From the NCBI GenBank assembly GCA_964494475.1, contig CAZBRS010000013.1, positions 11,057-75,056 on the forward strand: a DNA stretch of 64,000 nt. The letters run 5' to 3'. The notes beneath the pieces were generated by a model, which saw only the letters and a program-made list of their open reading frames with translations, was not told the DNA's origin and searched no databases. A program made the translations under genes and the position numbers. The DNA comes from an uncultured Myxococcales bacterium (GTDB taxonomy: Bacteria > Myxococcota_A > UBA9042 > CAZBRS01). Numbering within the stretch: position 1 is the stretch's first letter; each line of letters starts with the position of its first letter. Shown one piece after another: positions 17,179 through 29,981 of the stretch.

Positions 17179-18321
17179 TCAGAGGACCGCCACGTCCAGG
17201 TGCGGCACGCGGCCGTCGAGGCGCGCCACGGCGTCGGCTCCGTCACCCCAGTGCACCGTGTAGAGGACGCTCGCGTAGACGAGCGCGCGAAACGCCCGAC
17301 GAACGGGACCGAGGAGCGGATGGCGCCGGGCCAGGGAGAGCACCACGTAGGCGAAGCCCCGAACGAGGGCCTGGTCCAGGACCGGCGCGAGCAGGGCCGA
17401 GGCCACGAGCGGATCGTCGTCGTCGACGGCCAGGTGCGACAGGAACGCGTGGTGGAGCCGGCCGCCCACGGGAGGCAGGCGCGGCACGCGCAGCCAGGGC
17501 GCGAGCACGTTGACGAGCGGGCGGGCCAGCCGGAGCGCGCCCGAGTAACCGTGCACCACCGTCTGCTTGAAGGCGGTCTGGTCCCAGAGCGCGACGCAGC
17601 CCACGACTCGCCCGCCGCGCGTGGCGACCCTGAAGTCGCCGGGCGACAACCCGCGGCAACGCTCCGGGTCGGCGAGCGCGGCCGCCGTCCAGACCGGCGC
17701 GAACTGGTAGCGCCGCAGGTTGCGTTGCAGGCACTCGGCGAGCGCGTCGAGGTCGGAGGCCGCGGCGACGCGCACCTCGACCCCGGGGCAGGCGGTGGAG
17801 CGCTGCCGTCGCCAGAGGGGCAGCGCGAGCGTGTGGATTGGCTCGTGCTCGGTGTAGGTCGGCAATCCGGGGCGGGGGCGGGCCAACGCCCGGCGTGCGA
17901 GCTCGTTGCCGGCGATGAGGGTGGTCACGTAGAAGGAGGGCTCGCCGGCCCGGTCGTGCAGGCGTTGGAGGGCCGCGAAGCCGCCCCGCAGCAGGCCGCG
18001 CGTGCCGCGGTGTTCCCGGTCGACGCGCAGCTGCGCCAGGTAGCCCAGGCGCGTCGCCTCACCGTTCACGAACGCATCGCGCACGGCGCGGCTGCCGAGG
18101 CCCAAAAGGCGGCCCTCGGCGGTGCGCGCCACCACCGTCTGGTGCACGTCGCCCTCCAGCGCGGCGGCGTGGAAGAACGACGGCTCGCGCGTCAGCGCCA
18201 GCCGGAAGGCCCCGGGCATGGGGTTGTCGCGCAGCAGTCGACGGAGCTCGGGGTCGTCGGAGGGCACGGCCTCGTCGAAGACGACCGTCGGGCGCAGGTC
18301 GTTCGTTCCCGGTTGAATCAA
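17179..18321 (-). CDS. Acyltransferase-fold (GNAT/FemAB-like) protein, two tandem halves
   Basis: The composition is protein-like, with duplicated ~170-aa halves of GNAT-like secondary-structure pattern. The start is uncertain: TTG at 18321, or the upstream ATG at 18462 which would add a low-complexity Arg/Ser N-terminus. The family assignment is weak. Confidence 0.45.
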   Translation of the reverse strand: MIQPGTNDLRPTVVFDEAVPSDDPELRRLLRDNPMPGAFRLALTREPSFFHAAALEGDVHQTVVARTAEGRLLGLGSRAVRDAFVNGEATRLGYLAQLRVDREHRGTRGLLRGGFAALQRLHDRAGEPSFYVTTLIAGNELARRALARPRPGLPTYTEHEPIHTLALPLWRRQRSTACPGVEVRVAAASDLDALAECLQRNLRRYQFAPVWTAAALADPERCRGLSPGDFRVATRGGRVVGCVALWDQTAFKQTVVHGYSGALRLARPLVNVLAPWLRVPRLPPVGGRLHHAFLSHLAVDDDDPLVASALLAPVLDQALVRGFAYVVLSLARRHPLLGPVRRAFRALVYASVLYTVHWGDGADAVARLDGRVPHLDVAVL

Positions 18322-18472
18322 CGTCGAGATCCTCCCGCAGGCGACGGACGGTTCGGGTTCGGCTATTCTACCGCAAGTGCCAGCATCGGGGGAGGAGCGA
18401 GTGGGAGAGCGGTCGCGGTTGCGGGCGCGCACAACGCCTTGCGCTCGGCTCGACGCGGGCACGCGCGACGCG

Positions 18473-19147
18473 ATGTGGGGGCTCTTCGAGGCCCACTACG
18501 TCGACGTGGCGCGCGACCGATTCGAGCGCGACCTCGCGGCCAAGTCGCACGTGATCCTGCTGGTCGACGGGGCCGACGGGAGCGTGCGTGGGTTCTCGAC
18601 GCTCCGCCTGCTCGAGCGCCGCGTGGACGGGCGAGCCGTCCAGGTGCTCTACTCGGGAGACACGGTGGTCGACCCGGCCTACTGGGGGCAGACCGCGCTG
18701 CAGCGGGCCTTCCTGCGCTTCGGCCTGGCCGCCGCGCTCCGACGGCCCTTCGTGCCCACCTACTGGTACCTCATCTCCAAAGGCTACAAGACCTACCTGC
18801 TGCTGGCGCGCAACTTCCCCGAGCACTGGCCGCGGCACGATCGACCCACGCCGGCCTGGCAGCAGGGGCTGCTCGAGGATCTGGGCGCCTTCATGTTCCC
18901 CGAGTCGTTCGTGCGCCACGGGGGCGTGCTCCGACACCCCGAGCCCTTGGGCCGGTTGCGCGAGGGGGTGGCGCCCCTCGCCGCCGACGCCCTGGCCCAC
19001 CCCGACGTGCGCTTCTTCGTCGAACGGAACCCCGGGCACGCCGAGGGTCACGAGCTCTGCTGCCTGGGCCGCATCGGCCTCGGCCTGTGGGCCTCGTACA
19101 CCGCCAAGCTCCTGCGTCGGGCGCTCCGGCACCGGAGGCCGACGTGA
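18473..19147 (+). CDS. GNAT-like N-acyltransferase-fold protein
   Basis: The ORF is open from 18377. The ATG at 18473 (MWGLFEAHY...) is the likely start. It has GNAT-like core strands (VILLVDGADGSVRGFSTL, YWGQTALQRAF). It overlaps the downstream GH3 gene by 4 nt (GTGA). Confidence 0.5.
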   Translation: MWGLFEAHYVDVARDRFERDLAAKSHVILLVDGADGSVRGFSTLRLLERRVDGRAVQVLYSGDTVVDPAYWGQTALQRAFLRFGLAAALRRPFVPTYWYLISKGYKTYLLLARNFPEHWPRHDRPTPAWQQGLLEDLGAFMFPESFVRHGGVLRHPEPLGRLREGVAPLAADALAHPDVRFFVERNPGHAEGHELCCLGRIGLGLWASYTAKLLRRALRHRRPT

Positions 19148-28560: not shown

Positions 28561-28613
28561 GCGGATCGTCTCCCTGAGTCGTGTCCTGAGGGTACCGGCG
28601 GGGCGCGGCCGTG

Positions 28614-29981
28614 TCAACGCGCCGACCGCGTCGCCAGCCGGCTCACGATCTGGTTCTGCCCGCGCGTCGTGACGGGCATCTCGAAGCCCTTCAGGCGATT
28701 GAGGCGCTTCACGAAGATGCGGTACGTGAGGTTGCCCACGAACGCGATGGGGAAGTTCGACCCGGCCGCCACGGCGCGCTTCCAGATGTTGCCCATCTTG
28801 AAGGTCTCGCGGTAGGCGTGGCGGAAGCCCTCGTAGAGCTCGACGGGCGTCATCTTCGCGGGGCGGAAGACCACGTGCATGGTGTCGTAGTCGCCCCAGT
28901 CGTAGCTGAGGATGCGCTGCTCCTCCTCGAGCCGCTGGAACAGGCGCGTGCCGGGGTAGGGCGTGTAGATGGAGTAGCGGGGGATGGAGATCTTGAGCTC
29001 GTGGATGCGGTCCACGGTCGCCTGGAACACATCGCGGTCGTCGTGGTCGAAGCCGAACACGAAGGTGCCCTGCACCACGATGCCGGCCTTCTGCAGCCGG
29101 CGCACCACCTCGGGGTACTGGTCGGCCTTGTTGAAGCCCTTGGCGATGCCCGTGAGGTTCGGCTGCTGCACCGACTCGAAGCCGATCAGCAGGAACTGGC
29201 AGCCGGCCTTCACGAGCAGGTCGAACAGCTCGGGGTCGTCCGTGATCTGCACCGTGGCCAGCGCTCCCCACTTCTTCTTCAAGGGGATCATGGCGGTGAG
29301 AAGCTCTTTCGCGTACTCGACGTCCTCGAACGGGCTGACGTCGCTGACGGCGAAGCGCCTGGAGGGGAGGGCCTCGATGTCGCGGATGACATCGGCCACG
29401 GGGCGCTTCTGGAAGCGCTTCCAGATGACGGGCACCATGCAGAAGTCGCAGAGGTGCGTGCAGCCGCGCGTGAACTGCACGGTGTAGGGCATCATGTAGC
29501 CGCTCTTGCGGTGCAGTTCCCAGCGTGGGGTGGGCAGGTTCGGGGCCACGTCGGAGTCCCACTCCTCTTCGCGGTACTCGGCCTGCAACTGCCCGGCGCG
29601 GAGGTCGGCGAGGAGCTTGGGCCAGGTGCGCTCGGCCATGCCGATGACCACGCAGTCGGCGAAGGCGCGCGCCTCGTCGGGCATGGCCGTCACGTGCACG
29701 CCCCCCAGCACCACGGGGATGCCCTTGGAGCGGTAGTGGTCGGCCAACGCGTAGGCTCGGCGGGCCGTGCCGGTGATCACGCTGATGCCCACCAGATCGG
29801 GGCGCGCGTCGAGGGGTACCTTGTCGACGCTCTCGTCGACCAGCGTGTACTCGAGGTCGGGGTCGGGCGCCAGGGCCGCGAGGGTGGCGATCGAGAGCGG
29901 CACCTCGCGGAACGAGCGCACGCGCGAGCCGATGATCAGCTTGTGCATGGCCGCGTCGGGCATGATGAGCAGGATCTTCAT
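28614..29981 (-). CDS. Cobalamin-binding (class B) radical SAM enzyme (paralog of 22746-24089)
   Basis: The B12-binding region includes MKILLIMPDAAMH...DLVGISVITGTARRAYALADHYRSKGIPVVLGGVHVT. The SAM-cluster motif is RGCTHLCDFC. It is colinear with the 22746-24089 protein over its full length. Confidence 0.85.
   Translation of the reverse strand: MKILLIMPDAAMHKLIIGSRVRSFREVPLSIATLAALAPDPDLEYTLVDESVDKVPLDARPDLVGISVITGTARRAYALADHYRSKGIPVVLGGVHVTAMPDEARAFADCVVIGMAERTWPKLLADLRAGQLQAEYREEEWDSDVAPNLPTPRWELHRKSGYMMPYTVQFTRGCTHLCDFCMVPVIWKRFQKRPVADVIRDIEALPSRRFAVSDVSPFEDVEYAKELLTAMIPLKKKWGALATVQITDDPELFDLLVKAGCQFLLIGFESVQQPNLTGIAKGFNKADQYPEVVRRLQKAGIVVQGTFVFGFDHDDRDVFQATVDRIHELKISIPRYSIYTPYPGTRLFQRLEEEQRILSYDWGDYDTMHVVFRPAKMTPVELYEGFRHAYRETFKMGNIWKRAVAAGSNFPIAFVGNLTYRIFVKRLNRLKGFEMPVTTRGQNQIVSRLATRSAR

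Follow-up and report, generated by a model that had tools for sequence, protein, structure and literature searches.

A nine-gene radical SAM, GH3 and GNAT-fold block in an uncultured Myxococcales bacterium is a lineage-specific expansion of a widespread operon and may direct synthesis of a modified acyl amino acid-like amphiphile

What might a bacterium make with a gene block that combines a GH3-type amido synthetase, two acyltransferase-fold proteins, four radical S-adenosylmethionine (SAM) enzymes and a flavoprotein-reductase pair? Here, we address this question for a 64,000-nt stretch of DNA from an uncultured Myxococcales bacterium (contig CAZBRS010000013.1; hereafter, the window), in which nine genes, g1 to g9, occupy positions 17179-29981. 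In an initial annotation, the block was described as an orphan biosynthetic cluster built around four paralogous cobalamin-binding radical SAM enzymes. We find that the block represents a lineage-specific expansion, with rearrangement, of a five-gene operon that is widespread and uncharacterised and that consists of a g9-type gene, a g5-type gene, g1, g2 and g3. The enzyme superfamilies involved are known; their combination is conserved, widespread and uncharacterised. With moderate confidence, and by analogy to known pathways, we propose that this operon variant probably makes and exports a modified fatty-acyl amino acid-like amphiphile that is tailored without oxygen.

The block is not an orphan because its core belongs to a very widespread and conserved operon family. 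Using g2, a single-domain GNAT-fold protein that marks this family, we scanned one genome per GTDB species and found relatives in at least 557 species of the Myxococcota, Bdellovibrionota/Oligoflexia, Gamma- and Betaproteobacteria, Acidobacteriota, Planctomycetota, Gemmatimonadota and Sericytochromatia. A metagenome scan with an alignment of type A g1 proteins, i.e., the tandem GNAT subfamily of the window, gave at least 528 hits. The families of g1 and g2 are large and well conserved, hundreds to thousands of proteins from many phyla being 45-60% identical. Among the 80 best g2 loci (hereafter, the genome loci), a GH3 gene lies within 10 kb of g2 in 59, mostly directly downstream. The metagenomic loci have a stable operon order, rS9-rS5-g1-g2-GH3, in which rS9 and rS5 are the radical SAM clades of g9 and g5: in informative loci, rS5 is directly upstream of g1 in 33 of 34 and rS9 together with rS5 in 31 of 34, while g2 follows g1 directly in 41 of 47 and GH3 lies downstream of it in 30 of 36. 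A gene set of this kind had been said to match no characterised pathway, and this holds: no curated model, RefSeq product name or paper that we found assigns it to one, and our literature search returned no description of the gene combination, only the papers on OlsH and UfaD discussed below.

We distinguish two types of loci. Type I, which comprises ∼47 of the 80 genome loci, has g2, GH3, a VanA_C-type Rieske oxygenase and, next in order, a tandem GNAT resembling g1, with 24-33% identity to the window copy; frequent companions are two membrane genes of the fatty-acid desaturase family, a serine hydrolase, a fatty-acid hydroxylase and an MMPL exporter. Type II has a g1 that is at least 43% identical to that of the window, g2, GH3 and two or more B12 radical SAM genes of the g5/g9 clades, and lacks the VanA_C-type Rieske gene. 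Among the 27 metagenomic type II loci of at least 12 kb, eight have four radical SAM genes, eight have an MMPL gene nearby, mostly convergent, six have PAP2 and five a fatty-acid desaturase. The MMPL genes near the clusters are of the HAE3/HpnN-like exporter type. A complete type II cluster is present on a mobilizable IncFIB/IncFII plasmid of a Citrobacter portucalensis gull isolate (NZ_CP134684.1, 51417-60726; 8947-18256 in our locus L177) beside alpha-2-macroglobulin genes. Its order is g2, GH3, rS9, rS5, g1-like, two rS5-type genes, PAP2 and SnoaL; its G+C content is 52% versus 50% for the locus, its RefSeq names are generic only, and it has no match in Escherichia coli genomes. Type I clusters are found in Burkholderia arboris and in Paraglaciecola, where a TauD-like dioxygenase gene adjoins. 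In Acinetobacter baumannii X4-300 (NZ_CP064203.1; L175, 6129-13808), the order HlyD, MFS, g2, GH3, TolC-like outer membrane efflux protein, g1-like amounts to an EmrAB/TolC-like pump interleaved with a minimal core. Upstream of it are genes for a LuxR-family regulator and an amidase, and the record is labelled a plasmid yet is chromosome-sized (3.97 Mb).

Other neighbours of the family deserve mention. In the Myxococcota type II locus L085 (17971-20680), saccharopine dehydrogenase-like and AlaDH/PNT-like genes adjoin the radical SAM genes, and GH3 is followed by two genes for MacB-type FtsX permeases; in L091 (6535-7131), a gene for a PEMT-family phospholipid methyltransferase lies beside the cluster. 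These genes may give hints to the head group and the lipid context. Conserved neighbours of 483, 228, 735, 433 and 300 aa in related loci gave no informative Pfam match.

The nine-gene version is restricted more narrowly than the core. The whole gene order, together with the RodA/PBP2/PilZ flank, is kept in metagenomic relatives in which g2 is 68-76% and the proteins are 63-90% identical; because of this conservation, we consider that the block is not a chance assembly. Thus, of the synteny check called for in the initial annotation, the five-gene core passes very widely and the full block only in close relatives. Orthologues of g4 were seen only in the close relatives L088-L090, and g4, g7 and g8 were not found near g2 or g1 in the 80 genome loci or in metagenomic loci beyond these relatives. 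By contrast with this, g6-type enzymes are linked to g2 in L004, L037, L087, L099 and L103, in the first three directly upstream of it, and orthologues of g9 (62-70% identity) lie beside g1 and g2 in L010, L012, L023 and L044.

g3 is a member of the GH3 family of acyl-acid amido synthetases by domain content and by motifs, as the initial annotation had it. It matches all three GH3 domain models used (PF03321, PF23571 and PF23572), with 135.5 bits for GH3 (PF03321), 53 for GH3_M and 47.2 for GH3_C versus a gathering score of 23.6. The motifs SGGSTxxxK (G109, K115), T311-E312, R369-Y370..D374 and G402-E403-K404 are near-invariant in 19 cluster-linked homologues; we take them to correspond to the nucleotide-binding and adenylation motifs of plant GH3 proteins.

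The only characterised bacterial GH3 enzyme, OlsH, uses fatty acids and, with ATP and ornithine, forms N-acyl ornithine, after which an O-acyltransferase and a methyltransferase act (PMC12493201). The window resembles the OlsH/OlsI(/OlsG) system of Singulisphaera acidiphila (PMC12493201) in that enzymes for acyl transfer and tailoring are encoded in one operon with a GH3 enzyme whose adenylation motifs are intact. The two likely share their logic, in which an amino compound would be N-acylated at the expense of ATP and then acylated further and modified. Unlike that system, the window has neither an OlsI-type alpha/beta-hydrolase O-acyltransferase, there being no alpha/beta-hydrolase in its cluster by Pfam, nor an OlsG methyltransferase; instead, it has the GNAT-fold pair and B12 radical SAM enzymes. 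Serine hydrolase genes present in some type I loci match no NCBIfam family.

The acyltransferase candidates g1 and g2 were assigned to the GNAT fold; neither has a Pfam match at E ≤0.01, and a minority of g1 homologues match PF00583. Their families have no Pfam or NCBIfam model and no functional annotation, and each of at least 776 g2 homologues is named "hypothetical". N-Myristoyltransferase is a tandem GNAT, as is g1. However, N-myristoyltransferase and the GNAT-fold N-acyl amino acid and acyl-homoserine lactone synthases FeeM and LasI are only 10-15% identical to the window proteins, no better than generic acetyl-transferring GNATs, which score equally, and an acetyl donor cannot be told from a long-chain acyl donor by the folds. 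The two genes are divergent, and a 150-nt promoter region (18322-18472) had been placed between them. This is too long, because residues of g2 upstream of the ATG at 18473 are conserved among homologues and structured in the model, leaving a gap of 55-79 nt. The ribosome-binding-like motif GGGAGGAG lies immediately before the GTG at 18401, and the nearest database protein to g2 has 248 aa.

All four radical SAM proteins match Radical_SAM (PF04055) above its gathering score of 29.5, with 58.9 bits for g4, 64.8 for g5, 66.8 for g6 and 52.2 for g9, and have a CxxxCxxC motif, which lies at residue 197 in g4 (CRYHCTFC), 167 in g5, 265 in g6 and 174 in g9. As paralogues, they are less uniform than had been described: g5 and g9 are 39% identical, while g4 and g6 are 23-31% identical to any other. 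The N-terminal B12 domain ascribed to all four is found in g4 (48.7 bits), g5 (34.0 bits) and g9 (45.9 bits), which exceed the gathering score of PF02310 (32.1); these three are class B radical SAM enzymes by domain and are predicted to use cobalamin. g6, at 20.6 bits, falls below this score, and its orthologues in L087 and L088 match Radical_SAM only and not the B12-binding domain. The B12 domain of g6 is therefore doubtful, and g6 may not bind cobalamin; the solved protein that it resembles most is AprD4 (80 bits), which has a non-cobalamin Rossmann domain. g9 also has a weak DUF4070 match. g4 has a C-terminal extension of ∼270 aa (residues ∼400-660) of unassigned fold and without a Pfam or NCBIfam match, and its length is constant in close relatives (657-662 aa).

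Which chemistry these enzymes perform is less readily predicted. In a sequence search, their closest solved structures are distant class B relatives at 43-80 bits, TokK (53 bits) being the best for g4. Like BchE, HpnJ, PhpK, TokK, CysS and TsrM, the window's class B enzymes combine a B12-type Rossmann domain at the N terminus with a radical SAM core that contains CxxxCxxC, and they would be expected to act on unactivated carbons; methylation, hydroxylation and C-C bond formation are all compatible with their sequences. Based on NCBIfam model scores, they fall outside the curated families. g5 scores best against PhpK (84 bits), HpnJ (82) and BchE (75), all far under the cut-offs. Against BchE (TIGR02026, cut-off 481.35), g9 is best at 102.7 bits and the others reach 29-94. 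The four score 24.8-84.6 bits against HpnJ (cut-off 577.6), 25.9-44.9 against HpnR (cut-off 650), 43-94.7 against TIGR04072, the ladderane-type "lipid biosynthesis B12-binding/radical SAM protein" (cut-off 360), 18-78 against the TIGR03975 peptide methylase (cut-off 281.85) and 34-113 against ApyD (cut-off 750). We therefore rejected membership in each of these families. By Pfam and NCBIfam, no equivalog-level match was obtained for any of the nine proteins or for the type I cluster of Paraglaciecola.

The peptide-directed models in this list raise the alternative that the block matures a ribosomally made, post-translationally modified peptide (RiPP), with B12 radical SAM C-methyltransferases of the PoyC/ApyD type acting on a precursor, such as the product of a 93-aa open reading frame (ORF) directly upstream of g9, and a GNAT capping its N terminus. 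g4 and g6 do match rSAM_ocin_1 (68-78 bits) and g5 and g6 ApyD (77-113 bits), but the cut-offs of 282 and 750 are far higher. Moreover, the 93-aa protein has a hydrophobic, signal peptide- or lipoprotein-like N terminus (MRRATLLLAVASAVGVSCWCG...) and several cysteines. It has no Pfam match and no homologue in the fetched loci beyond the identical Logan contig L001, on which it was also called as a gene, and neither a conserved small ORF nor a protease, a RiPP recognition element or a peptide exporter is present in the annotated loci. GH3 proteins are, to our knowledge, foreign to RiPP pathways. Because the small ORF is unconserved and without a Pfam match, we rejected this explanation as barely credible.

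The radical SAM and Rieske genes have complementary distributions. Of the species with the single GNAT and GH3, at least 557 in number, most lack the radical SAM genes and have a Rieske oxygenase, accompanied or not by di-iron desaturases. A Rieske gene is present in 54 of the 80 genome loci, rS5/rS9 in seven and both in none (Fisher p = 2e-4, uncorrected for phylogeny). The VanA_C-type Rieske gene is likewise absent from all 27 metagenomic type II loci of at least 12 kb, and the window's version of the cluster encodes no oxygen-dependent enzyme family. g1 covaries with the redox genes: its identity to the window copy is 43% or more in loci with radical SAM genes and 33% or less in those with a Rieske gene. 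In a neighbour-joining tree of 136 g2 sequences, calculated without support values, one deep clade is all type II and another is mixed, with the window among scattered type II loci; because these lie scattered among type I loci, parsimony on this tree gives at least seven type switches. This pattern is in line with, and no proof of, a role of the radical SAM pair as an alternative to the Rieske step that does without oxygen. In chlorophyll biosynthesis, the di-iron oxygenase AcsF and the B12 radical SAM enzyme BchE are the classical aerobic/anaerobic pair for one step. Similarly, in one conserved gene context here, B12 radical SAM enzymes and Rieske enzymes, the latter with di-iron desaturases or without them, show complementary distributions, and BchE, which has an oxygenase as its aerobic counterpart, is the model that the g9 type matches best. 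Unlike for AcsF and BchE, the equivalence of the two steps is inferred here from gene distribution alone, and a few loci hold radical SAM genes together with another Rieske protein or a desaturase.

The flavoprotein g8 and the reductase g7 stand apart from the core. The domain calls made for them initially, a CrtI-family flavin enzyme and an FNR-type reductase fused to a 2Fe-2S ferredoxin, were confirmed, as were those for GH3 and Radical_SAM. g7 matches FAD_binding_6 (38.9 bits), NAD_binding_1 (65.4 bits) and Fer2 (44.7 bits), all above the gathering scores, and aligns end to end with models of Hcr-type NADH oxidoreductases and PaaE-type proteins at scores under the cut-offs, so that no equivalog was reached. 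For g8, Amino_oxidase is the sole passing model (88.4 bits versus a gathering score of 19.8); carot_isom gives 159.3 bits (cut-off 586.9) and crtI_fam (TIGR02734) 141.5 (cut-off 238.1). As every family cut-off was missed, we rejected g8 as a member of the CrtI/phytoene desaturase family. g8 has more than 2194 homologues at E 1e-30 or better. In three unrelated loci, a g7-type reductase gene directly follows a g8-type gene (L093, 8001-10748; L094, 8001-10718; L178, 10001-12758), at identities of up to 64%. The g8-g7 pair is thus an autonomous two-gene module, which appears uncharacterised. Its recurrence in unrelated contexts argues that g7 is more likely the redox partner of g8 than a donor to the radical SAM enzymes, contrary to the earlier suggestion of a dedicated electron donor. 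A 587-aa radical SAM gene lies behind the pair in L094; in L093, the pair is preceded by a fragment of an AMP-binding gene and followed by NMO and alpha/beta-hydrolase genes.

A lipid role for g8 is plausible because UfaD, a phytoene dehydrogenase-like enzyme, desaturates a methyl-branched phospholipid acyl chain (PMC7380195). In the UfaM/UfaD/UfaO furan fatty acid pathway (PMC7380195), a CrtI-superfamily enzyme acts on a membrane lipid acyl chain after C-methylation, as g8 might. Unlike UfaD, to which it is likened by description, g8 travels with its own FNR-ferredoxin reductase and lies outside the conserved core, and the Ufa methylase is a classical rather than a radical SAM enzyme. The g8-g7 pair may desaturate or saturate a C-C bond of the cluster product or be unrelated to it.

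The similarity of g8 to carotenoid isomerase, CrtI and CrtD, together with the weak radical SAM scores to HpnJ, HpnR and BchE and the HpnN-like MMPL genes in related loci, could be taken to indicate tailoring of an isoprenoid lipid, i.e., a hopanoid, carotenoid or polyene-like compound, by HpnP/HpnR/HpnJ-type radical SAM enzymes and a CrtI-type desaturase. This is roughly the idea of the initial annotation, which cited hopanoid and glycerol dialkyl glycerol tetraether chemistry. The HpnJ, HpnR and crtI_fam scores given above are, however, far from their cut-offs, as are those to BchE and the ladderane-type model, and nothing else points to such chemistry: Pfam scans of the window genes and the annotated related loci show no squalene or phytoene synthase, no squalene-hopene or other cyclase and no hpn genes, and g8 is not part of the conserved core. 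We also know of no role for GH3 enzymes or GNATs in isoprenoid pathways. We consider isoprenoid tailoring improbable.

The autonomy of g8-g7 also raises the possibility that the block is two or three independent units that happen to be adjacent: the core (g1, g2, g3, g5 and g9), the g8-g7 pair and, possibly, g4 and g6, with functions elsewhere. The three unrelated contexts of the pair, including one at 64% identity, the absence of g4, g7 and g8 near g2 or g1 outside close relatives and the presence of at least five transcription units in alternating orientation are in line with this. Nevertheless, g8-g7 sits between core genes, such that g9 is parted from g1 by g8-g7 and g4-g6; relatives with no more than 63-90% protein identity share this gene order; g6-type genes are linked to g2 in five other loci; and the convergent ends of g7 and g6 overlap, with g8 53 nt from g9. 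Independent units are a possibility that we take seriously, if with some doubt.

We favour a single pathway, similar to a GH3-dependent amino-lipid pathway to which class B radical SAM enzymes have been added. In our model, g3 would adenylate a carboxylic acid, for which a fatty acid or an N-acyl amino acid is the probable candidate, and join it in an amide bond to an amine or amino acid, as OlsH does. The GNAT-fold pair would add further acyl groups from acyl-CoA or acyl-acyl carrier protein. The g5/g9 pair would functionalise an unactivated C-H position of the chain or head group without oxygen, at the point where most other carriers have the Rieske oxygenase, and the tandem GNAT g1, whose subfamily covaries with the redox enzyme, probably acts on the functionalised intermediate. 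g4 and g6 would contribute lineage-specific radical tailoring, and the embedded g8-g7 pair might introduce or remove a C-C double bond in the same product or have an unrelated function. The product would probably be an amphiphile that is exported. We propose this order of steps because of the analogy to OlsH and the recurring lipid-modifying and exporter neighbours. The former include fatty-acid desaturases, a fatty-acid hydroxylase, PAP2 and PEMT; the latter include MMPL/HpnN-like proteins, the MacB-type FtsX permeases of one Myxococcota locus and the tripartite pump of A. baumannii. These neighbours also make the lipid-like substrate suggested in the initial annotation plausible.

Several observations weigh against this model. 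g3 reaches only 49.5 bits against the OlsH model (NF052613, cut-off 620), over residues 23-124 only. All nine proteins appear soluble, and the window's cluster has no exporter, acyl carrier protein or OlsI-like alpha/beta-hydrolase. The g8-g7 pair may be a passenger insertion. As for the redox step, the statistics disregard shared ancestry and the g2 tree has no support values. Absolute exclusion between radical SAM and Rieske genes was rejected, given that L092, L099, L103 and L133 have, besides rS5/rS9, a Rieske protein of another kind and a fatty-acid desaturase; in L087, a g6-type enzyme co-occurs with a Rieske gene. The radical SAM and Rieske enzymes may make different derivatives rather than the same one. 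Finally, some type I "fatty acid desaturase" proteins weakly match the arginine hydroxylase GntB (54 bits, cut-off 380), which makes a non-lipid product derived from amino acids possible.

Such a product could be a secreted siderophore-like or osmolyte-like metabolite or a signal, with GH3 acting as a ligase of the nonribosomal peptide synthetase (NRPS)-independent siderophore (NIS) type, the GNATs N-acetylating and the redox enzymes hydroxylating or methylating side chains. In addition to the GntB match, the TauD-like dioxygenase by the Paraglaciecola cluster, the saccharopine dehydrogenase- and AlaDH-like genes beside L085, the tripartite MFS efflux pump interleaved with the A. baumannii core, the solubility of the window proteins and GNAT folds that fit acetyl and long-chain donors alike are compatible with it. 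Against this, PAP2, PEMT, two membrane fatty-acid desaturases, a fatty-acid hydroxylase and HpnN-like MMPL exporters recur as neighbours, the GntB score is far below its cut-off and OlsH uses fatty acids. On balance, we consider a non-lipid metabolite unlikely. Extending our preferred model of a lipid-like product, we speculate, quite tentatively, that the GNAT/GH3/tandem GNAT core makes a new, phylogenetically widespread class of exported compounds of the lipo-amino acid type, which would be tailored by Rieske enzymes, with or without di-iron desaturases, where oxygen can be had, and by the BchE/HpnJ-like pair where it cannot. The two would form a repeatedly switched pair in the style of AcsF and BchE, and the window, with four radical SAM enzymes and none that depends on oxygen, would be an extreme anaerobic-style version.

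The gene models on which these analyses are based are listed in Table 1. Plain ORF lists are crowded with spurious frames because the window has ∼70% G+C; we therefore resolved ORFs by third-position GC frame analysis, which returned the same nine genes, at the same positions, as the initial annotation. For six of the nine products, a protein of the same sequence over its full length is encoded on a single NCBI contig of 100,606 bp, and the start of g1 was confirmed by a 380-aa database protein that is 100% identical. The mosaic of overlapping, convergent and divergent genes also stands, with overlaps of 4 nt for g2/g3, 4 nt for g3/g4, 14 nt for the convergent g6/g7 and 8 nt for g7/g8. An Rfam scan of the window detected no cobalamin riboswitch and no other RNA family. 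A consensus scan gave no sigma-70-like promoter between g1 and g2; however, its promoter and terminator matches are at the level of shuffled sequence and thus uninformative for a genome of this G+C content.

Table 1. Features of the gene block and its immediate surroundings (window coordinates)
Feature	Position	Strand	Size	Assignment and remarks
g1	17179-18321	-	380 aa	Tandem-repeat GNAT acyltransferase, type A subfamily; TTG start
g1/g2 intergenic region	18322-18400 (or to 18376)		79 nt (or 55 nt)	Divergent intergenic region
g2	18401-19147 or 18377-19147	+	248 or 256 aa	Single-domain GNAT-fold protein, marker of the cluster family; GTG start
g3	19144-20730	+	528 aa	GH3-family acyl-acid amido synthetase
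g4	20727-22709	+	660 aa	Class B (B12-binding) radical SAM enzyme, lineage-specific
g5	22746-24089	-	447 aa	Class B radical SAM enzyme, rS5 clade, conserved core
g6	24152-25855	+	567 aa	Radical SAM enzyme rS6 with N-terminal Rossmann-like domain
g7	25842-27032	-	396 aa	NAD(P)H-dependent FNR-type flavoprotein with C-terminal 2Fe-2S ferredoxin domain
g8	27025-28560	-	511 aa	FAD enzyme of the CrtI/carotenoid isomerase superfamily
g9	28614-29981	-	455 aa	Class B radical SAM enzyme, rS9 clade, conserved core
Small ORF	30013-30294	-	93 aa	Membership doubtful; 31 nt upstream of g9; missing from the initial annotation

The flanks of the block consist of housekeeping or regulatory genes unrelated to it. 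Based on Pfam scans of the window genes, RodA, PBP2 and a PilZ protein lie on the left, and a NUDIX protein, an unassigned 599-aa protein, an FHA-GAF protein and CTP synthase on the right; a glutamate synthase gene is also among the flanking genes. The same scans confirm across the whole window what had been noted for the block, namely that there is no polyketide synthase (PKS), NRPS or terpene cyclase. An ORF of ∼5273 aa on the minus strand (41155-56976) has MopE-type putative copper-binding motifs (227 and 345 bits in its halves) and thrombospondin type 3 repeats; it is probably an extracellular giant repeat protein, and we ruled it out as a PKS or NRPS. Five consecutive large plus-strand ORFs of 711, 598, 291, 833 and 515 aa (18-7592 and 10785-12332) have good coding statistics and no Pfam match. 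They surround a gene (7600-10788) for a 1062-aa protein with HEAT repeats, a weak TLC ATP/ADP transporter-like region and a C-terminal cNMP-binding domain, and the end part of this arrangement is syntenic in the relatives L088-L090.

Altogether, the window is one more member of an operon family in which GNATs and a GH3 enzyme, combined with two to four B12 radical SAM enzymes or a Rieske oxygenase, probably constitute a common way to produce a metabolite for export; the peculiarities of this member, g4 and the embedded g8-g7 pair, are lineage-specific. Because versions of the operon are present on a Citrobacter IncF plasmid and on the chromosomes of A. baumannii, Burkholderia and Paraglaciecola, the model is directly testable in culturable organisms. 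Knowledge of the product would provide annotations for thousands of genes, build on the very recent discovery of amino-lipid synthesis by bacterial GH3 enzymes and show which reactions a new class B radical SAM clade carries out. Moreover, a new enzyme pair might come to light in which the same step is performed either with or without oxygen.

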